Below, piece by piece: positions 2,031 to 9,915 of a stretch of DNA of 9,915 bases. The notes below the pieces were generated by a model. The model was not told the origin of the DNA. It made no database searches and was given only the letters and a program-made list of their open reading frames with translations. A program made the translations under genes and the position numbers. Origin of the DNA: Halalkalibacterium halodurans (GTDB lineage: Bacteria > Bacillota > Bacilli > Bacillales > Bacillaceae_D); NCBI RefSeq assembly GCF_004376175.1, contig NZ_SNUY01000095.1, positions 1 to 9,915 on the forward strand. Direction: 5' to 3'. How positions within the stretch are numbered: the first letter of the stretch is position 1; each line of letters begins with the position of its first letter.

Positions 2031-3128
2031 TTATTTTCCGAATAAAGCCTTAAGTTTACTAATCAATGAATTGATAAACTTTTGTGTGGCTTCATTATAC
2101 ATGTATAAAGCAGTTCCTCCACCAACGGTGACAACTGATCCACCGATAATGAATAATGGCGTAGCAGGGAATTGCTTGTCTTCTTCTTCCTGTGTTTCCT
2201 CTTCTAAGATTTCTTCTTCTTCCTGCATTTCTTCTTCAATTTCTTCCACTTCTCCATTTTCTTCATTTCCTAGCAAAATATCAGCTTCTTCTTTTGTAAC
2301 TTCCTGTTCAATTCCTTCTGATTTGACAATAGCAAAATAGCGACCGTTCCTTTCAATGACTTCCGCTTCCAGTTCTAATAATTCATCGACTGTATAGATT
2401 TTCGCTTTTTCTTCTTGAGCTTCTACACTGTCATCGTCTTTATCCTCTATTTTTACGTTGTTGCTTCCAGTGTTATTACTAGAAGAACCACCATTACTAC
2501 TTTGAGTGCTATTACTAGATTGACTACTATTGTTTGAATTACTTCCGCTTTGTTTTGATTCCTCTTTTTTAGTACTTGGATTAGATGAACCCGTATTTGA
2601 TGACCCTGATCCTGAGTTATTATTTTTATTAGAGCTTTCTGATCTAGGTTTATCCTGTTTTTTTGGTTGTTCTTTTTTCTTATCTGGTGTTGGGCTAACC
2701 GGTTTTGGTTCTGGTTTTGGTTCTGGTTTTGGTTCTGGTTTTGGTTCTGGTTTTGGTTCTGGTTTTGGTTCTGGTTTTGGTTTATTTTGTTCTTTGACAA
2801 TAGTTGTGACAGTTAATATAAAAGTTCCTTGTTCAGACCCTTCTGCTACATAGACCGTCACTTTATCGCCATTATTCACTACCCCTTCATAGCTTCCAGT
2901 GAGATAAAATTGACCAGAGTTTGGTTCATATCCCCCTCTCACAAACTTAGCTAAAGCTCCTGTTGCTGACGCTCTATTATCCCCAGTGTGATCCGTAGTA
3001 ATGGTAATTGATGATGATCCAGGATTGTCTGGCGTGTAAAAAGTATTAGCAAGCGCTGAGTTAGATGATGACATCATTCCATAAAAAACAAATACCGTTA
3101 AAAGTAATACTTTTACTGTTTTTCTCAT
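2031..3128 (-). CDS. Secreted, C-terminally membrane-anchored stalk protein (365 aa) with PEPK repeats
   Basis: Signal peptide MRKTVKVLLLTVFVFYGMMSSSNSALA. A beta-rich domain of about 85 aa is followed by the (PEPK) linker, a Ser/Asn-rich tract and a Glu-rich segment. The C-terminus has a TM helix (PLFIIGGSVVTVGGGTALYMY) and a basic tail. No LPXTG motif. I place the start at ATG 3128 (AGGAAGGGA 9 nt upstream), because the predicted promoter at 3153-3181 would initiate downstream of the ATG at 3152. Confidence 0.85.
   Translation of the reverse strand: MRKTVKVLLLTVFVFYGMMSSSNSALANTFYTPDNPGSSSITITTDHTGDNRASATGALAKFVRGGYEPNSGQFYLTGSYEGVVNNGDKVTVYVAEGSEQGTFILTVTTIVKEQNKPKPEPKPEPKPEPKPEPKPEPKPEPKPVSPTPDKKKEQPKKQDKPRSESSNKNNNSGSGSSNTGSSNPSTKKEESKQSGSNSNNSSQSSNSTQSSNGGSSSNNTGSNNVKIEDKDDDSVEAQEEKAKIYTVDELLELEAEVIERNGRYFAIVKSEGIEQEVTKEEADILLGNEENGEVEEIEEEMQEEEEILEEETQEEEDKQFPATPLFIIGGSVVTVGGGTALYMYNEATQKFINSLISKLKALFGK
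2701..2781. repeat. Perfect 12-bp tandem repeat GGTTTTGGTTCT, 6 full units plus 9 nt
   Basis: Read directly from the sequence. It encodes KPEP on the minus strand. The unit length is a multiple of 3. Confidence 0.95.
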
Positions 3129-3152
3129 CTTATGCGATCCCTTCCTTTTCAT

Positions 3153-3181
3153 ATCATATTTTATATCGTCAAAAGTTGCAA
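3153..3181 (-). promoter_or_regulatory. Sigma-A-type promoter candidate for the surface-protein gene
   Basis: On the minus strand: TTGCAA (3181-3176), a 17-nt spacer, then TATGAT (3158-3153). It sits between the ArpU stop and the ATG at 3128. Confidence 0.5.
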
Positions 3182-3198
3182 AACTTTGTACCCATATT

Positions 3199-3642
3199 TT
3201 ATTCTCTAAAAACTACAACTTTTAAGGCGAACGCCAAGTTTATCAAAGCTGATTTTTTCTTTGTATAATAGGCTGTTCGGCTTATTCCGCATTTTTCCTG
3301 TATGACATAATCTGGTTCATCTTCTAAGTCTCTTGTTAAGTATCTTTTTATTATTAATTCTTTATCTTCTTTTTTTAATTTGTTTACACATTGGATTACC
3401 CACAGCAAGAAATTTTCAATTTCCTCTTTTTTATCAATAAAGCTCTCTATTTTACTGTGGAATTGATTAGAAAAGGTAGCATTGTGTTCAAGCGTTGATG
3501 TAATTGAGACAGATTCAAAATCATAACTCAAGGAGTACTGTTGATAATCAAATAATATCTTTTCTACTGCGTGTTTCGTTCTATTTACGTCCACTTTAGG
3601 TACTTTTTTAATGATGTTTTGCTTTTCTATTACTCCACCCAC
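3199..3642 (-). CDS. arpU: ArpU-family transcriptional regulator (phage late-gene type, sigma region-4-like)
   Basis: The 147-aa size, the N-terminal PKVDVNRTKHAVEKILFDYQQY pattern and the C-terminal ELIIKRYL...CGISRTAYYTKKKSALINLAFAL HTH match my recollection of the ArpU family. GTG start with AAGAGGTGG 6 nt upstream. Confidence 0.75.
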   Translation of the reverse strand: MGGVIEKQNIIKKVPKVDVNRTKHAVEKILFDYQQYSLSYDFESVSITSTLEHNATFSNQFHSKIESFIDKKEEIENFLLWVIQCVNKLKKEDKELIIKRYLTRDLEDEPDYVIQEKCGISRTAYYTKKKSALINLAFALKVVVFRE

Positions 3643-3672
3643 ACATTTCCACCTCTTTCACCATATTTCATC

Positions 3673-3690
3673 GTTTACTATAGTGGACAC
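3673..3690. promoter_or_regulatory. Operator-like imperfect palindrome, site 1 (GTTTACTATAGTGGACAC)
   Basis: Lies between the Cro-like stop and the ArpU start. It matches site 2 at 15 of 18 positions and has the half-site structure GTTYAC-TATA-GTRRAC. Confidence 0.4.
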
Positions 3691-3703
3691 TCAAACAAAA
3701 AAA

Positions 3704-3937
3704 TTAATCTACAGTAATCAAAAAAATCTCGTCTACGTCTTTTTTAAGACCACTTGCAATTTTTGTAGCTACAAGAGTTCCAGCTTTTGTTTTCCCTCGT
3801 AAAACTCTGATAAAATAAGAATGAGAAACACCAATATTTTGCGCAAATTGCCTTTTTGTTAGTCCCATTTTCGCAAGGGTTAGTTCTATTTTCATACTCA
3901 CATCTTTTTTCATAAGAAATTTAGCTCTCACCGCCAT
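3704..3937 (-). CDS. Cro-like XRE-family HTH regulator (63-77 aa depending on start)
   Basis: HTH pattern LTKRQFAQNIGVSHSYFIRVLRGKTKAGTLVATKIASGL. It is divergent from the larger XRE repressor. Alternative in-frame ATGs occur at 3913 and 3895. Confidence 0.8.
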   Translation of the reverse strand: MAVRAKFLMKKDVSMKIELTLAKMGLTKRQFAQNIGVSHSYFIRVLRGKTKAGTLVATKIASGLKKDVDEIFLITVD

Positions 3938-4003
3938 ACTCCTTTCCTACTTTTCAGTCAGGTCATATTTATTTCGTATCAGTACCATTATATTACTACA
4001 AAA

Positions 4004-4021
4004 GTTCACTATAGTAAACAC
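4004..4021. promoter_or_regulatory. Operator-like imperfect palindrome, site 2 (GTTCACTATAGTAAACAC)
   Basis: Lies in the divergent intergenic region. It sits 11 nt upstream of a minus-strand TATAAT (3992-3987) and 15 nt upstream of the plus-strand -35 candidate. Confidence 0.4.
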
Positions 4022-4036
4022 TTTTTAATCACTTTA

Positions 4037-4065
4037 TTGGACAATTTTTTTCATCGACTTATATT
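4037..4065 (+). promoter_or_regulatory. Sigma-A-type promoter candidate for the XRE repressor operon
   Basis: TTGGAC (4037-4042), a 17-nt spacer, then TATATT (4060-4065). Confidence 0.35.
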
Positions 4066-4133
4066 AAACAGCTTAAAGCCTTATAATTATTTGTTAGAAG
4101 CGTTTAAAGAAATCCGCTTGAAAGGTGATCACT

Positions 4134-4553
4134 ATGGAAAATAATTTTAGATTCGGGGAATATTTAAAAAGAAAAAGAAAAGAAAAGGGCTTTACGATTC
4201 GCAACTTAGCTTTAAAATCTGGTATATCCAAATCCTATATATCCATGCTTGAGAGAGGAGTAAAAAAGTACCCCTCTGCCCAAGTACTTAATAAATTAGC
4301 TAAACCTTTAGGCGTGACAGAACAGGAACTATTTAAGATTATCGGCTACATGGGAGAACACAATGTAGAAAAGCAAGAAGATAGTAAAGGTGCTATTACT
4401 ACAAGTGATAAAAATAATCATATAATTAATGAAGAAGCTAACGTATTCTTTTTTGATTTAGACGGATTATCTGAAACAGATATACAACAGATTAAAGATC
4501 ATATAGAATTTCTTAAACATAGAGCAAAAGATAAAAACAAAGGTAATGAATAA
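4134..4553 (+). CDS. XRE-family HTH repressor with C-terminal extension (ImmR/CI-like), 139 aa
   Basis: HTH pattern FGEYLKRKRKEKGFTIRNLALKSGISKSYISMLERGVKKYPSAQVLNKLAKPLGV. ATG at 4134 has GAAAGGTGA 5 nt upstream; the listed GTG at 4125 lies inside that SD. The C-terminal tail reads ...NVFFFDLDGLSETDIQQIKDHIEFLKHRAKDK. Confidence 0.85.
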   Translation: MENNFRFGEYLKRKRKEKGFTIRNLALKSGISKSYISMLERGVKKYPSAQVLNKLAKPLGVTEQELFKIIGYMGEHNVEKQEDSKGAITTSDKNNHIINEEANVFFFDLDGLSETDIQQIKDHIEFLKHRAKDKNKGNE

Positions 4554-4602
4554 CGGTATTCCTGTTAATCTTAAAAATAGTACTGAAATAAAGGGGACTA
4601 TT

Positions 4603-5142
4603 ATGTCAGAAAAGAGTGTTAGGTCAGTTAATGAGTCGAAATCATATAGAGTATCTACTTTTTATAAAATATGCTTTGAGACTGTAGTTAGTATTTATGG
4701 TAAACGAGATCCACTTACTGATGAACTAATAAGCTTATATTTTAAGGAACATTTCTCAGAACATTTTAATATTGACGATTTAAAACAATTGAATAAAACA
4801 TCTTTAGCTGAAAAAATGCTAGATGAATTGATTAGATATAATAAATCCTTTAACGAATTAAAATACATTAAAAAAAGTGATCGGATAACAAGATTAGAGT
4901 CAAATTTAAAATCTAAGTATGGAGAAATACCAAGAGTACGAGAAAATATACACTTTAGATTACTTCCCCATTATCAAAATTTCATTACTAATTTTGCAGA
5001 AGGTACAATAGCAGAAGTACTAGAACTTGCAATTGCTAACTATATTACTAATCATTGTAGTACTTTTGAGTACGAATTGATCAATTTATCTTTTCATGGT
5101 CATATTAAACGATTAAAAAAAGAAGAAAATAAGCCCCTATAA
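4603..5142 (+). CDS. Hypothetical protein, 179 aa, with a ribbon-helix-helix-like C-terminus
   Basis: ATG at 4603 with AAAGGGGA 5 nt upstream. The longer ORF from 4546 has no good SD but would overlap the XRE stop (ATGAATAA). The C-terminal IHFRLLPHYQNFITNFAEGTIAEVLELAIANYITNH fits a strand-helix-helix pattern. Confidence 0.6.
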   Translation: MSEKSVRSVNESKSYRVSTFYKICFETVVSIYGKRDPLTDELISLYFKEHFSEHFNIDDLKQLNKTSLAEKMLDELIRYNKSFNELKYIKKSDRITRLESNLKSKYGEIPRVRENIHFRLLPHYQNFITNFAEGTIAEVLELAIANYITNHCSTFEYELINLSFHGHIKRLKKEENKPL

Positions 5143-5157
5143 AATTCTTAGGGGCTT
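5131..5157. terminator. Shared hairpin terminator between convergent genes
   Basis: The 9-bp stem AAGCCCCTA (5131-5139) pairs with TAGGGGCTT (5149-5157). The minus strand has a T-rich tract after the stem (ATTTTCTTCTTTTTTT). The plus-strand tail (TAAATAT) is weaker. Confidence 0.65.
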
Positions 5158-5282
5158 TAAATATAGTCTACTATTGTTACCGTACTCGTTGGCGTAATTG
5201 TATGTTTACTAGCAAGGTTTTCTGTTTCCTCTCCGAATAGACAAAGACCGCTAATCAAAACAAGAAAAATCACTTTGTTCAT
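5157..5282 (-). CDS. phr: Phr-type secreted signalling pro-peptide, 41 aa (not in the ORF track)
   Basis: Hand translation gives MNKVIFLVLISGLCLFGEETENLASKHTITPTSTVTIVDYI. ATG at 5282 lies 13 nt after the rap stop. GAAGGGG sits 8 nt upstream and overlaps the rap TGA. An N-terminal signal-like hydrophobic segment is followed by a hydrophilic pro-region. Confidence 0.75.
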   Translation of the reverse strand: MNKVIFLVLISGLCLFGEETENLASKHTITPTSTVTIVDYI

Positions 5283-5295
5283 TTTTTCAACCCCT

Positions 5296-6375
5296 TCAAA
5301 TTAAATCATTTCTAGATTTAATCACTCGCTCACGTGCCGTTTGAGCTAAATCAAAGAATTCACACGCATGATCATATTGCTCACTATCCTTATAGTATTG
5401 AGCAATCACTAAAGCATATTCCTCAACGTAATTCCATAACCCTTTTTCAATAAAAAAATCAATTATTTTATTAAACTCTGTTTCCATTTCAAAATAATAA
5501 GAGTAATCAGGGTCATATAGTGCTTTTTGTACTCTTAGATGATATATATACTCATGATTACTTGTTTCTTTGCATACACCTATCGCTTTTTCATAATATT
5601 CATTTCCTGTATCTATATCATTAATTCTATAACATTCTCTTGAGAGTAGATAATAAGTTTTGATGAGCTGTTCTTTATCATTAGTTACAAATTCAAGTGC
5701 GTTTGTTAATTGCAAAACGGATTCTTTTGGTTTCCCTAATTTTGAGTATAAATGACCCAAATTATGATAGCATATACTTACATTGTCGTGATTTAACTTT
5801 TTATAAATTTTTAGAGCTTGATTGTAATGTAATTCACTCTCTTTTAATTGCTTTATTTCATAGTTATTATTAGCAATTACTATGTGACAATCTGCCATTC
5901 TCTTTAGTTTATTATTCTCTTTAAATATCTCGTAGGCTTTATATACATTTTTAATCGATAAAGTAATTTTATCAATCTCATAGTAAAGTGCAGATAAATT
6001 GTAATAAAACTCCCCTCGTTCCAAGGGATCAACCTTATTTAAAAATTTACTTGCCAGTTTAAAAAAGTACAGTGATTCCTCATACTCTGACTGATAAAAT
6101 TTAAATAGCGCATTAAAATAATGATATGAGAAGTTATAAAGCTTATCATCCTCAATATAGGGTAACATTAATTCTTGTGTTTTTTCGAACAAATGAAAGT
6201 CTTTTTTAAGTAAATAATATCGTGCTGTTACAACATAATAGTATTTTTTTTCAGAAGGATTAACAGGTGGTTTTGTAGATAATTCAGAGAAAAGTTTATC
6301 AGCTTCTGGGTTTTGATCCCTTATCAATACATTTAAAGTTTCAAGTTCGTTGAAAGAACTCTCTTTTATTATCAT
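5296..6375 (-). CDS. rap: Rap-family TPR quorum-sensing receptor (response-regulator aspartate phosphatase / anti-repressor family)
   Basis: At 359 aa it has no N-terminal HTH. Repeated TPR signatures include YFFKLASKF, GEFYYNLSALYY, CHIVIANNNYEIKQLKESELHYNQALKIY and ICYHNLGHLYSKLGKPKES. The C-terminal WNYVEEYALVIAQYYKDSEQYDHACEFF parallels B. subtilis Rap proteins as I recall them. ATG has AAAGGAGGG 5 nt upstream. Confidence 0.88.
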   Translation of the reverse strand: MIIKESSFNELETLNVLIRDQNPEADKLFSELSTKPPVNPSEKKYYYVVTARYYLLKKDFHLFEKTQELMLPYIEDDKLYNFSYHYFNALFKFYQSEYEESLYFFKLASKFLNKVDPLERGEFYYNLSALYYEIDKITLSIKNVYKAYEIFKENNKLKRMADCHIVIANNNYEIKQLKESELHYNQALKIYKKLNHDNVSICYHNLGHLYSKLGKPKESVLQLTNALEFVTNDKEQLIKTYYLLSRECYRINDIDTGNEYYEKAIGVCKETSNHEYIYHLRVQKALYDPDYSYYFEMETEFNKIIDFFIEKGLWNYVEEYALVIAQYYKDSEQYDHACEFFDLAQTARERVIKSRNDLI

Positions 6376-6569
6376 TTTGTCCCTCCTTTATCTAGGTTAA
6401 TTTCTAGATCCTTAAATATAATTAGTATAAATGTACTGTTTTAATCGGTCTACTTAATATTTCTCAAAAAAAAATAAGAATATCGCTTTATTCGGTCTTT
6501 TTCCTTAAATTCTTTCTATATTTATTTATTTTTCTTACATGGACATAAATTTATTTATTTTTTTTACTC

Positions 6570-6598
6570 TTGATATGTATTCTTGAATACAATATAAT
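6570..6598 (+). promoter_or_regulatory. Near-consensus sigma-A promoter with an embedded palindrome, upstream of the ImmA-like gene
   Basis: TTGATA (6570-6575), a 17-nt spacer, then TATAAT (6593-6598). The spacer contains the inverted repeat TGTATTC-TT-GAATACA (6576-6591). Confidence 0.6.
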
Positions 6599-6669
6599 CC
6601 TATTAGAGGAAAAAAATAATAAAATATGAGAATCATATTATTCGTATAAGGGAAAAAGGAGTAGTACTT

Positions 6670-7143
6670 ATGGATTATTTTCCGAACAGACTTGAATATT
6701 TAATATCACAAAGATTTAAACAAAAAGGCATATTGTTACCAGATGATCTTAAAATTGAAACTGTTGCAAATGCGTTTGACATTGAGATTTTTTACCACCA
6801 AACCTCATTTGCCTTCTTTCAAGGCAATTACAAAGCAATCACCTTAAACAAACATGTTGATAGTAGGCAACAGCATTATGAATTTTGGCACGAGTTAACT
6901 CATATATTAATACATACTGGCGATCAACTCAAAACAGCTAAATACATAAACAAATATCAAGAAATTGACGCAAATAAATGCGCTCTCTTTTGCGCCATGC
7001 CATATCATATGTTGCAATATATCGATTGGTATCAAGAAAATTTACTAGAACTACTTTTAGAACAATTTCATCTACCGAAGCACCAGCTAATCAATAGGTT
7101 GCAACAGATTCAGACAAAACAACAAAATATGGTCTTTAATTAA
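6670..7143 (+). CDS. ImmA/IrrE-family (COG2856, peptidase M78-like) zinc metalloprotease, 157 aa
   Basis: HExxH motif in FWHELTHILIH, and a downstream EIDANKCALFCAMPYHML that matches the family's E-x-EAN-x-FA-x-x-LL-MP pattern. AAAAGGAG lies 8 nt upstream of the ATG. Confidence 0.8.
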   Translation: MDYFPNRLEYLISQRFKQKGILLPDDLKIETVANAFDIEIFYHQTSFAFFQGNYKAITLNKHVDSRQQHYEFWHELTHILIHTGDQLKTAKYINKYQEIDANKCALFCAMPYHMLQYIDWYQENLLELLLEQFHLPKHQLINRLQQIQTKQQNMVFN

Positions 7144-7152
7144 TATAACAAA

Positions 7153-7184
7153 AAACAGGTAAAGTTTTTTAGCTTTACCTGTTT
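7153..7184. terminator. Bidirectional rho-independent terminator
   Basis: A 12-bp stem, AAACAGGTAAAG (7153-7164) with CTTTACCTGTTT (7173-7184). A-run and T-rich tracts flank it on both sides. It sits between the convergent stops at 7143 and 7193. Confidence 0.8.
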
Positions 7185-7192
7185 CGTTTATT

Positions 7193-7447
7193 TTATTTGT
7201 TCTTGAGAAATCCATAGATCCCTTTTTCTTGTTCGGTCAGTCCATGTTCCGCGTAGTATTCTGCAATTTCACCGACCAATTCATATAACTTAACATCTTT
7301 ACTCTTTGCTAAAGCCATTAGTTTTTTGTGTGTATCTTCTGGCACCTTCATTGTCTTTAATTTAACATCTTCTTTCGGTCGATTTACATTCATAAACGGA
7401 TTTTCCGCTTGAGAAGTAACTTTTTTTCTATTTAAACTTTTAGACAT
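7193..7447 (-). CDS. Ribbon-helix-helix ParG/ParB-like partition adaptor, 84 aa
   Basis: The ATG shares one base with the ParA stop (TAATG). A disordered basic N-terminus is followed by KTMKVPEDTHKKLMALAKSKDVKLYELVGEIAEYY, which fits an RHH pattern. GAAGGGG lies 10 nt upstream. Confidence 0.7.
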   Translation of the reverse strand: MSKSLNRKKVTSQAENPFMNVNRPKEDVKLKTMKVPEDTHKKLMALAKSKDVKLYELVGEIAEYYAEHGLTEQEKGIYGFLKNK

Positions 7448-8253
7448 TAAACTTCAACCCCTTCTAACTTCTTAATTCTCATTAACATTTCATCTAAGAC
7501 ATTATTATACATGCCTAATACTTTTAAATCATGATGATCCTCTTCTGTGATTCCGTTAACATCAAACCTTTTGATACGCTCCCTGATCGATATATGCGCT
7601 TTGAATAGATCCTCTTCAAAAAGTTTCTCAGCTTCAGAAATAATGAAATTGTCTACTGTTCCATCCTTCTTCATCAAAACAGGCACAATACCGATTAAGT
7701 CAATTTTGGCATGGTAATTATCGATCATATCCTGTAGATATGGAATAAATTTTTCACTAGCCGACAAAGATCGTTCGTGTGTTTGCATTACTATCATCAC
7801 AAAATCACTAGACACGACAGCATTATTAGTAAAGTCAGAAATTGTAGGTGGCACATCAATAAAAATGTAATCATAAGTTGACTTAAGAGGTGCTAAAAGA
7901 AAGTCAACAAAATAAGCACGTTTATAATTGTCGTCTTTCGCTTCTTTATTAAGCAGGAATGGGAAAGCAACTAAGTCTAAGTCAGAAGGTAGTAAATCTA
8001 AATTTTCTTTTATTTTTACGATTGCTTTTGTTAGGTTTTTATCAGCCATTGCTTGATACAATGTAGTATCTAAACGCTCTAAATTTGCTGTTCTTGCAAG
8101 TAGATCAGTTGCATTTGCCTGTGGGTCGAGATCTAAAACAAGGACTCTCTCCCCTCTTTGAGCAAGTAAATAAGAAAGTAAAACGGTAGTGGTTGTTTTT
8201 CCCACACCTCCTTTAAAATTGGCTACATTGATTACTTTAGCTGCTGCGTTCAT
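7447..8253 (-). CDS. parA: ParA/Soj-family partition ATPase (deviant Walker A), 268 aa
   Basis: KGGVGKTTT deviant Walker A, VLVLDLDPQANAT and a Walker B-like YIFIDVPP. The preferred start is ATG 8253 (AAAGGGTG 6 nt upstream), not the listed GTG at 8286. Confidence 0.9.
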   Translation of the reverse strand: MNAAAKVINVANFKGGVGKTTTTVLLSYLLAQRGERVLVLDLDPQANATDLLARTANLERLDTTLYQAMADKNLTKAIVKIKENLDLLPSDLDLVAFPFLLNKEAKDDNYKRAYFVDFLLAPLKSTYDYIFIDVPPTISDFTNNAVVSSDFVMIVMQTHERSLSASEKFIPYLQDMIDNYHAKIDLIGIVPVLMKKDGTVDNFIISEAEKLFEEDLFKAHISIRERIKRFDVNGITEEDHHDLKVLGMYNNVLDEMLMRIKKLEGVEV

Positions 8254-8320
8254 ATTATACACCCTTTCAACTTTTGGTTTGTACACTAATTTTACTACAT
8301 TTATTAATAATAATTCAAGT

Positions 8321-8347
8321 AGTATTTTTAGTAATTTGAGTATTATA
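8321..8347. repeat. Three phased 9-bp direct repeats (AGTATTTTT, AGTAATTTG, AGTATTATA) upstream of parA
   Basis: Read directly from the sequence. They overlap a minus-strand TATAAT (8347-8342) about 90 nt upstream of the parA ATG. The region is AT-rich, so a chance occurrence is possible. Confidence 0.3.
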
Positions 8348-8407
8348 CCTAATACCCTAAGTCAGGTTGTATTATTCTATAATTATCAGGAAAGACTGCT
8401 GGTAATA

Positions 8408-8416
8408 TGTTATAAT
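8408..8416 (+). promoter_or_regulatory. Extended -10 promoter element (TGtTATAAT) for the toxin-antitoxin pair
   Basis: TG at 8408-8409, then one nt, then TATAAT at 8411-8416, about 25 nt upstream of the ATG at 8441. No good -35 is present. Confidence 0.4.
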
Positions 8417-8440
8417 ATAAAAAAGAAAGGAAGTGATCAG

Positions 8441-8596
8441 ATGATCAGAAAACGCAAAAAGATCGCAAATAGACCGGAAACACTGAAAGAAGTTACCACA
8501 AGAGAGGATGAAGCGATCAAAGTAGGAAAAGCTTACGATTTTTTGTTTGAAGGGGAAAATAACGATTATGACGAAGAGTACAACGATTACATCTAA
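8441..8596 (+). CDS. Candidate antitoxin, 51 aa, basic N-terminus and acidic C-terminus
   Basis: MIRKRKKIANRPETLKEVTTREDEAIKVGKAYDFLFEGENNDYDEEYNDYI. AAAGGAAGTGA lies 4 nt upstream of the ATG. It sits immediately upstream of, and overlapping, a MazF-fold gene. Only this C-terminal part of track ORF 8189-8596 is credible. Confidence 0.55.
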   Translation: MIRKRKKIANRPETLKEVTTREDEAIKVGKAYDFLFEGENNDYDEEYNDYI

Positions 8597-8963
8597 TGAA
8601 GTAATGAAACAAGGACACTTGTGGGTTGCCCCCATATGGTCACACACAGCTAATAAGTTTGTTGGTCGTCCTATTGTCATCACAGGAAATGATTCAGCAA
8701 ATGATAAGTTAGGTCTTATTGTGAATTTTGTTACTCGGACACCTGCCCGAAATGACTTTGACGTTGACCTAAAACATTGGAAATATGCAGGATTAAACTC
8801 TCCCTCTAGGGTTCGAACATCCAAACCGTTAACGATACTAAAAAAAGATCTAAATCAAACCCTATTTGAAAGAAATGGTGTTAGACAACCTAGAGGATAC
8901 ATAGGAAAATTACACGAAGAAGATTTAGCCAATGTTCTTGAAATGTGTAGGCTCATTTACTAA
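8568..8963 (+). CDS. PemK/MazF-family (CcdB/MazF fold) toxin
   Basis: KQGHLWVAPI...VGRPIVITGND aligns by eye with B. subtilis EndoA/MazF KRGDVYFADL...GVRPVLVIQND. Later GLNSPSRVRTSKPLTILKKDL...IGKLHEEDLANVLEM parallels ERDSVILLEQIRTIDKQRL...ITHLDDEMMDKVDEAL. The start is ambiguous: ATG 8568 (131 aa), or ATG 8604 (119 aa, 7 nt after the antitoxin stop). Confidence 0.75.
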   Translation: MTKSTTITSNEVMKQGHLWVAPIWSHTANKFVGRPIVITGNDSANDKLGLIVNFVTRTPARNDFDVDLKHWKYAGLNSPSRVRTSKPLTILKKDLNQTLFERNGVRQPRGYIGKLHEEDLANVLEMCRLIY

Positions 8964-8973
8964 CTTAACTTTT

Positions 8974-9006
8974 AAAACCTTTACTTAATAAAAGGTTTTT
9001 TTATTT
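8974..9006 (+). terminator. Rho-independent terminator candidate (AT-rich stem)
   Basis: AAAACCTTT (8974-8982) pairs with AAAGGTTTT (8991-8999) around an 8-nt loop, followed by a T-rich tail. Confidence 0.5.
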
Positions 9007-9022
9007 GTAATCTCCCCTTCCC

Positions 9023-9649
9023 CTATGTAACCTTATCTATCCATTCTTTAAGAGTGGTAGTGATTGATTGCGAGTTAATCTTAACTTCATCAAACAAGTA
9101 TTGTATAAGCTCAACCCATCCAAACTTCTCCTGATTAGGATTTTGACTCTCAATGTACTTAATCACCTTTTCTAATTCTTCCATTCTCCTTTTATCCAAA
9201 TTCCCTTGTATAAACTCTTTAACAAAAGAATTTATAATCTCAGCATGTTTAAAACTAAACTCAAGTAACAATGCCACACATTTAGATGGCGTAACATCCA
9301 GAGCAAATGCAAGGGATTTAATTTTTTCAATATCTTGTTGTTTAAATCTTATAGTGATTCTAGATGTATTCCCCTGTAGCTGTAGTTTCTGTAGTGATTC
9401 CCTCTTCACATCGCCAATATAAAAAACATTATTATTAAATGTATAATTTCTCCGCATATGTGGAGATAATGATTCTATAACTTTATCGCTTTCTAAACAC
9501 AGTAAAGTTAATGCTTCTGCAACATCTTTTATAGGCGTGTTAGTGATGTAACTCAATCTATCGATTGATTCCTTTAGGTTGTCTAAAATTGTAGGCTTAC
9601 AATCAATTTTTTTATCAGCACGAACTTTTCTAACTACCTCTTCCCTCAC
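9023..9649 (-). CDS. Hypothetical protein, 208 aa, with two RHH-like segments
   Basis: The preferred start is GTG 9649, with GGAGG 8 nt upstream; the listed GTG at 9664 is itself part of that SD. The segments KPTILDNLKESIDRLSYITNTPIKDVAEALTLLCLE and RITIRFKQQDIEKIKSLAFALDVTPSKCVALLLEF both fit a strand-helix-helix pattern. Confidence 0.6.
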   Translation of the reverse strand: MREEVVRKVRADKKIDCKPTILDNLKESIDRLSYITNTPIKDVAEALTLLCLESDKVIESLSPHMRRNYTFNNNVFYIGDVKRESLQKLQLQGNTSRITIRFKQQDIEKIKSLAFALDVTPSKCVALLLEFSFKHAEIINSFVKEFIQGNLDKRRMEELEKVIKYIESQNPNQEKFGWVELIQYLFDEVKINSQSITTTLKEWIDKVT

Positions 9650-9717
9650 ATTAAAAACCTCCACAAAAAAATTCAGATTAAGAACAGTGTCCCTAAGTCC
9701 TAGATTTATTTATTAGT

Positions 9718-9912
9718 ATGAAAAGGGGAGAGGTATTATGTATAAACAAAGCTAATTTTGGGAAACATCTTATTAAACTACGAAAGGCGTGTATTTTGCA
9801 AGCAAAAAGTTTAGAAGAATGCAATGAAAAGTTTAGAACTTTGCCAGCCCTTACTTTCTTTCTAATTAGCGATTCGATAATGCATGTTTCACACGGTAAC
9901 TATCGCCAGTAA
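9718..9912 (+). pseudogene. Possible frameshifted or degenerate small regulator gene
   Basis: The ATG at 9718 has no SD. A strong SD (AAAAGGGGAGAGG) serves ATG 9738, which opens only a 5-codon frame (MYKQS stop). The adjacent frame continues with NFGKHLIKLRKA, an XRE-like N-terminal motif. Confidence 0.25.
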
Positions 9913-9915
9913 AAC

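Follow-up and report, generated by a model that had tools for sequence, protein, structure and literature searches.

A rap-phr cassette on a plasmid-like element of Halalkalibacterium halodurans, with a probable internal pheromone

Related systems and the place of the locus among them

Among the Rap-Phr systems with solved structures, RappLS20-PhrpLS20 of the B. subtilis plasmid pLS20 (PDB 6T3H/6T46) gave the best sequence match to the receptor studied here, together with a fold match over its full length. The two loci are alike in layout, as pLS20 also carries on a plasmid a rap gene followed by a 44-aa phr, whose pheromone, QKGMY, carries Lys as its second residue. RappLS20 is the anti-repressor of an HTH repressor, Rco, controlling a divergent operon (PMC7430634), and our window (the whole stretch of 9,915 nucleotides that was analysed, from Halalkalibacterium halodurans) likewise encodes an XRE repressor at a divergent promoter adjoining rap-phr. 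However, RappLS20 is only ~22% identical to the window Rap, and the XRE repressor is likened to Rco by position, not by homology. Furthermore, the pLS20 pheromone is a C-terminal pentapeptide, whereas the conserved block of the window propeptide is internal and seven residues long.

Rap-Phr pairs reside on other mobile elements as well, as exemplified by Rap105-Phr105 (phi105) and Rap3T-Phr3T (phi3T), and the window Rap matches the phage protein family phrog_5208 (3e-47). Phr105 contains ERPVGT twice, internally and at the C-terminus, four residues apart, and both copies are matured to active pheromone (PMC11343458). This two-copy layout with a short spacer is also that of the Niallia-type homologue described below, while the window Phr, unlike Phr105, has a single internal copy followed by a 10-residue tail; the pheromones ERPVGT and RRGHTA are unrelated to it. 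Closest in peptide format is NprR-NprX of the Bacillus cereus group, a sister receptor family, where NprX, a heptapeptide from within its precursor (SKPDIVG; PMC3763537), starts with Ser-Lys as does SKHTITP of the window. NprR, however, is a peptide-activated transcription factor with an N-terminal HTH, and the arbitrium receptor AimR is also HTH-bearing and pairs with a C-terminal hexapeptide, AimP, whereas the window Rap has no HTH and its conserved block is internal. No AimR chain appeared among the 39 sequence matches or the 50 fold matches listed for the window Rap. As its receptor lacks an HTH, the window cassette is neither an NprR-NprX nor an AimR-AimP system.

In ICEBs1, RapI-PhrI reportedly controls the XRE-type repressor ImmR through the M78 protease ImmA. 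Genes of an XRE repressor and of an M78 protease flank rap-phr in the window too, but the gene order differs, and the M78 gene adjoins rap in the window only, the homologous rap genes of other loci having no such neighbour. With the chromosomal RapF-PhrF and RapG-PhrG the locus has in common the fold, the anchoring Asn and Tyr, and an acidic anchor for a basic residue at peptide position 2, in the Glu/Lys variant that is also that of RapG-PhrG. It differs from the chromosomal B. subtilis Raps in giving no RapH_N match and in having Ile in place of Arg223. Its fold, its domains, its anchor residues and the layout of its genes all place the cassette among the Rap-Phr systems. We assign a probability of about 0.68 to the reading that it is a quorum-sensing cassette of a plasmid-like or mobile element, with a pheromone that is SKHTITP or a 5-7-mer within it, rather than the C-terminal tail, and that switches Rap off.

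The receptor and its relatives

The rap gene (5296-6375, minus strand) encodes a protein of 359 aa in which a 3-helix bundle at the N-terminus is joined by a linker helix to seven TPRs. Pfam reported TPR alone, with no HTH, and the ORF is already maximal at 359 aa, leaving no upstream extension that could encode one. A phmmer search against PDB sequences yielded RappLS20 (3e-19), RapF (1.5e-17) and Rap105 (5e-15), and further matches to RapH, Rap3T, RapI, RapJ and, at 1e-8, NprR. The AF2 model, built with 85 homologues (pLDDT 95), contains 18 helices, arranged as 3 + 1 + 14, and in a Foldseek comparison with the PDB the best 23 matches were all Rap chains aligned over the full length (~360 columns). 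In the Foldseek matches listed, the highest full-length TM-score among Raps was that of RapI (0.78), and one apo NprR chain scored 0.79. The RapH_N model (PF18801) gave no match at E <= 0.01 to the window Rap or its four closest relatives, although it does match the remoter relatives P0005 (weakly) and P0007. Despite this, the N-terminal domain is predicted to fold as a 3-helix bundle; its divergence puts it out of reach of the RapH_N model, and homology therefore does not point to a target of Rap.

To locate the peptide-binding residues we mapped the anchors of RapF, as defined in PMC3601957, through the phmmer alignment, in which the two proteins are only ~20% identical. Asn227 of RapF corresponds to N205 of the window Rap (Asn in 75 of the 85 homologues), Tyr152 to Y132, Asp194 to E173 (Glu in all four closest relatives) and Asp338 to E319, while Arg223, which holds the peptide carboxylate, is replaced by Ile201. 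In RapF, the partner of Asp194 is the basic second residue of the peptide, and in RapG-PhrG a change of Asp to Glu in the receptor goes with a change of Arg to Lys in the peptide (PMC3601957). Judged by this alignment, the window Rap keeps the peptide-anchoring Asn and the acidic anchor.

An exhaustive HMMER protein search with the window Rap returned 1177 relatives. The closest two dozen are 347-375 aa long, except for P0009, a multi-TPR protein of 1483 aa that matches Rap in short repeat stretches only, and HTH-bearing relatives of the NprR type (411-420 aa, HTH_3) begin at E ~1e-26. Since receptor identity to the window Rap falls quickly, from 41% to 37%, 36% and 32%, the clade is, by sequence comparison, small and rare. 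Its named members belong to Bacillaceae and related Bacillales families (Niallia, Lentibacillus, Tuberibacillus and Fictibacillus), and its receptors are labelled in the databases only as 'tetratricopeptide repeat protein' or 'hypothetical'. Plasmid and phage collections, searched by megablast with the rap region and with the entire window, yielded no match and no near-identical DNA; scans of genome and viral contigs with the receptor alignment gave no confirmed relative, and a 51-mer of phr was not matched exactly anywhere in the genome contigs.

Two of the relatives deserve a separate mention. A 59.5-kb contig labelled Streptococcus agalactiae (L001, GCA_030233755.1) holds a rap-phr whose neighbours encode DUF3888 and DUF4304 domains, which we take to be typical of Bacillaceae. 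Its Rap is at least 90% identical to proteins of Niallia spp. assemblies and its phr DNA is identical to theirs, so the species label, which may reflect contamination or recent transfer, is not to be relied on. The other is the propeptide encoded beside P0027, an HTH-bearing receptor of the NprR type (L021, 2779-2916): within it HDKVPDS is repeated perfectly in tandem (HDKVPDS-HDKVPDS), ahead of the tail SPAKTEIHI, and from its sequence the tandem looks like a duplicated NprX-like pheromone.

The phr gene and the position of its pheromone

Directly downstream of rap lies phr (5157-5282, minus strand, stop codon counted in), a 41-aa pre-pro-peptide gene with the full translation MNKVIFLVLISGLCLFGEETENLASKHTITPTSTVTIVDYI. 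Its ATG (5282-5280) follows the TGA of rap (5298-5296) after a gap of 13 nt, and a Shine-Dalgarno sequence read from the DNA, GAAGGGG (5291-5297, minus strand), overlaps that TGA and stops 8 nt short of the ATG. The original prediction had called this unlisted ORF from the letters of the window; its coordinates proved exact, the translation agrees, and the spacing of the start codon and the overlap of GAAGGGG with the stop codon both read as described. Across the interval the plus strand has no ORF of at least 20 aa, and Rfam gave no family match anywhere in the window. The rap-phr DNA is identical in L003 (Logan ERR1034890), an independent assembly from a separate sample, in which the 41-aa product is likewise called as a gene. 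Ahead of a 1-nt indel near 8353 the window and L003 differ by three substitutions, all outside rap-phr.

The transcription unit ends with an intrinsic terminator (5115-5157, minus strand), composed of a hairpin (5157-5131) and a U-rich tract (5130-5115). The hairpin is G+C-rich, with 9 bp and a folding energy of -14.1 kcal/mol (z = -2.7; 1 of 200 shuffles folds as well), and was missed by a scan for consensus terminators because its loop is 9 nt long. It sits directly past the TAA of phr, not after rap, and overlaps the stop codon of a convergent plus-strand gene for a 198-aa protein. A pattern scan of the window found no sigma-H-like promoter upstream of phr or inside rap; the single sigma-H-like match in the window lies upstream of rap and is at chance level. 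With no such promoter inside rap and a single terminator, rap and phr probably form one transcript.

The first 17 residues of Phr (5232-5282, minus strand; MNK, then VIFLVLISGLCLF, then G) resemble a signal peptide, with a basic n-region, MNK, and a hydrophobic core of 13 residues; the best 11-residue Kyte-Doolittle window, at residues 4-14, scores 2.99. This pattern of basic n-region and hydrophobic core is common to all the homologous propeptides. Applying the -3/-1 rule by eye, signal peptidase would cut between LFG and EE, leaving EETENLASKHTITPTSTVTIVDYI as the 24-residue pro-region. We also considered the leader as that of a lipoprotein and rejected this, as S-G-L-C does not have the small residue needed ahead of the Cys.

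We surveyed the DNA just past the genes of nine distinct homologous receptors. Eight of these genes are followed, on the same strand, by an ORF of 41-52 aa whose product has a basic N-terminus and then a hydrophobic core; in many cases the ORF overlaps the stop codon of rap by 4 nt. The original prediction had named conservation of the small ORF after rap homologues as a check, and the signal-bearing ORFs after eight of the nine receptors bear it out. The exception is Lentibacillus cibarius (P0003), where rap runs straight into a terminator and is an orphan. This orphan gene (L004, 3001-4071; GCA_005887555.1) encodes the third-closest homologue; it keeps the equivalents of N205 and E173 as well as the same ParA and small-gene neighbours, and its product might eavesdrop on AKHT-type peptides.

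The propeptides whose receptors are 33-40% identical have only one block in common, [A/S]KHT[I/V]xP. The window propeptide ends in ...TENLA-SKHTITP-TSTVTIVDYI, and its counterparts in ...SESI-AKHTITP-FSTVQVVKV-AKHTITP (Niallia type), ...SESI-AKHTITP-FSTVQV-AKHTITP (L007, an allele of the Niallia type), ...PVEV-AKHTIHP-SSISFTYYM (L005) and ...ANEL-AKHTVLP-YSSHYYYI (L014). In the block K, H, T and P are invariant, while leaders and tails are dissimilar. Its codons vary (ACA/ACT, ATT/ATC/GTT, CCA/CCT), so the conservation is at the protein level. The small ORFs of the remoter relatives L008, L009 and L011 are without this block. A peptide-profile search of a set of 5.8 billion proteins recovered only three peptides that were already known, and neither KHTITP nor KHTIHP occurred in the papers that a literature search for the motif listed.

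These observations bear on what the small ORF is. Its length by itself could arise by chance in an AT-rich intergenic spacer, as ORFs of at least 41 aa on the phr strand appeared in 64 of 5000 (1.3%) dinucleotide-preserving shuffles of the 156-nt gap. None of those 64 ORFs, however, combined a basic N-terminus with a hydrophobic core, the Shine-Dalgarno sequence stands at the proper distance, the terminator comes after phr and not after rap, and the motif recurs at the protein level in four other lineages; this conservation effectively refutes an untranslated chance ORF, to which we give next to no credence. It is also very unlikely that the ORF encodes a membrane-resident or non-signalling protein, such as a toxin-like or exclusion peptide, that merely lies beside rap. 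The N-terminal segment is strongly hydrophobic and small hydrophobic proteins are frequent on plasmids, yet it is the polar C-terminal block that is conserved and not the hydrophobic segment, and the place right after rap, often with the 4-nt overlap, is kept across receptors that are 29-40% identical; the duplication of the motif fits pheromone dosage instead. We conclude that the 41-codon ORF is a real gene, encoding the precursor of a signalling peptide for the adjoining Rap that, by its leader, would be secreted. The original assignment as a Phr-type pro-peptide gene after rap is upheld by the HTH-less Rap fold, the co-oriented and coupled ORF, and the counterparts after eight of the nine receptors.

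Which part of Phr becomes the pheromone is a separate question, and here the original prediction, which sought the signal in the C-terminal TSTVTIVDYI and remarked on its having no basic residue, is probably wrong, as the conserved block lies inside the propeptide and carries Lys as its second residue. We propose that SKHTITP, residues 25-31 (5190-5210, minus strand), the conserved core, is or contains the mature pheromone, and that the tail of residues 32-41 (5160-5189, minus strand), which is variable between homologues, is removed in maturation. By sequence, [A/S]-K-H-T-[I/V]-x-P fits the format of 5-7 residues with a basic residue at position 2, and x-K-H-T-... fits the acidic-anchor site of E173. 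Subtilisin-type proteases do not favour sites with Pro at P1. Since a cut at the end of the block would need such a site, the exact C-terminus of the pheromone may lie elsewhere, giving a 5-, 6- or 7-mer.

Alternatively, phr may be a genuine Phr gene whose mature pheromone comes from the TSTVTIVDYI tail, with [A/S]KHT[I/V]xP conserved as part of the pro-region or as a processing signal. In its favour, RRNPP pheromones typically come from the C-terminus of their precursors (PMC11343458), the tails vary from lineage to lineage, as specificity determinants would, and a weak common pattern, x-S-[S/T], follows the Pro of the block. Yet the tails (TSTVTIVDYI, FSTVQV(VKV), SSISFTYYM and YSSHYYYI, with none after the second Niallia copy) share neither length nor sequence, and they offer no basic residue to match the conserved acidic anchor E173. 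The Niallia type has AKHTITP in two copies, one internal and one forming the extreme C-terminus, and as this second copy ends the propeptide, the canonical C-terminal pheromone would be AKHTITP itself. Between the two alleles, whose DNA is ~95% identical, the spacer has lost three residues in L007 and an Ala has become Asp upstream of the repeats, whereas the repeats are intact and show synonymous differences only. Internal pheromones also have precedent in Phr105, NprX and the P0027 propeptide. On balance we consider a pheromone from the tail unlikely, although clearly less so than either of the alternatives weighed above, and prefer SKHTITP or a shorter peptide within it.

The surrounding element and a possible mechanism

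The window is an entire 9.9-kb contig with hallmarks of a plasmid or mobile element, in which rap-phr lies between a repressor operon (the XRE gene and the gene of the 198-aa protein) and the M78 protease gene. The XRE/CI-type HTH repressor (142 aa; 4125-4553, plus strand) matches Pfam HTH_3 (1.3e-15) and PHROG families of transcriptional repressors, and is a candidate target of Rap; a 77-aa HTH gene (3704-3937, minus strand) is divergent from it. The second gene of the operon (4546-5142, plus strand) encodes 198 aa, or 179 aa from M20, is convergent on phr, and its product is likewise a candidate partner or target of Rap. Homologues of this protein are found in the Lentibacillus contig (L004, 4126-4725, minus strand; 29% identity, 5e-24), convergent downstream of rap, and in L014 (4948-5604, minus strand), convergent downstream of rap(-phr), so that the family holds this position in three separate lineages. 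In both L004 and L014 a tyrosine-recombinase-like gene follows the homologue. The 198-aa protein had no Pfam, NCBIfam or PHROGs match at standard thresholds; with Pfam relaxed to E<=5, each of the three homologues gave one sub-cut-off match, mutually unrelated. Ribbon-helix-helix-like segments were considered for the family and set aside, as this permissive scan gave no meaningful match. A single-sequence AF2 model of the 179-aa form was unusable (pLDDT 38).

On the other side of rap, and divergent from it, is the gene of the ImmA/IrrE-type M78 metalloprotease (6670-7143, plus strand; Pfam Peptidase_M78 1.1e-8, PHROG metallo-protease 1e-13). Two 22-nt direct repeats, TAWATTTATTTATTTTTYTTAC, occupy 6517-6538 and 6546-6567 in the intergenic region between the divergent rap and M78 genes, 29 nt apart and just upstream of a sigma-70-like promoter (11/12) at 6570-6598 (plus strand); they may be operator sites. 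Partition genes for ParA and a PrgO-like partner follow (7193-8286), and beside them is a PemK/MazF-type toxin gene (8547-8963, plus strand; Pfam score 24.0 bits, cut-off 23.1), for which we identified no antitoxin; long ORFs that overlap on both strands near the toxin (8189-8596 and 8372-8824) are probably spurious. At the other end are an ArpU-family regulator (3199-3642) and, downstream of it, a secreted repeat-rich surface protein of 373 aa (2031-3152, minus strand), which contains a (PEPK)n repeat, a low-complexity stretch rich in Ser and Asn and an acidic region, and has a hydrophobic anchor at its C-terminus.

Positions 2753-9789 of the window are 99.9% identical to L003 over 7 kb, while the flanks, 1-2752 and 9790-9915, are unrelated to those of L003. 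One of the two boundaries falls inside the PEPK repeat, where the L003 contig breaks, and the unrelated flanks could stem from mosaicism of the element or from a break in assembly. Neither the window contig nor L003 shows the terminal overlap that would indicate circularity, and no conjugation genes were recognisable in the window.

The mechanism we propose starts with co-transcription of rap and phr up to their common terminator and translation of phr from a Shine-Dalgarno sequence of its own. The N-terminal leader would direct export of the 41-aa product, which would then be trimmed extracellularly, presumably at sites that release SKHTITP or a peptide of 5-7 residues inside it, starting at Ser25-Lys26. 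After re-import, which we infer, the peptide would sit in the TPR groove of Rap, with Asn205 and Tyr132 holding its backbone and Lys2 pairing with Glu173, and would turn Rap off. Peptide-free Rap most likely acts on the switch of the element itself, be it through the XRE repressor, the syntenic 198-aa protein or a route by the ImmA-like protease; these neighbours suggest that Rap controls a mobile-element switch. By analogy with RappLS20-Rco and RapI-ImmA-ImmR, peptide-free Rap would relieve the repression of the leftward operon of the element, and the pheromone would restore it. The most specific form of this proposal joins several parts, namely that the clade uses NprX-style heptapeptides, [A/S]KHT[I/V]xP, cut twice from mid-propeptide, that the Glu173-Lys2 salt bridge operates without the carboxylate-binding Arg, and that the output is an undescribed mobile-element switch acting via the 198-aa family. 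Taken jointly, we hold these to be doubtful.

The original gene call stands, and SKHTITP-type candidates are to replace its peptide prediction. The locus is an ordinary kind of system and leaves the general understanding of RRNPP signalling unchanged, but it adds a rare Rap-Phr subfamily with a conserved pheromone motif of its own, probably an internal NprX-like heptapeptide, and gives this subfamily a concrete pheromone prediction, SKHTITP, with Lys2 pairing with Glu173. Comparing cognate propeptides corrects, in this case, the default assumption of a C-terminal pheromone. Located in the regulatory region of a plasmid-like element, the cassette could be a handle on how expression is timed to the density of carrier cells, and if the proposed mechanism is true, the leftward operon of the element would respond to the density of the cells that carry it.
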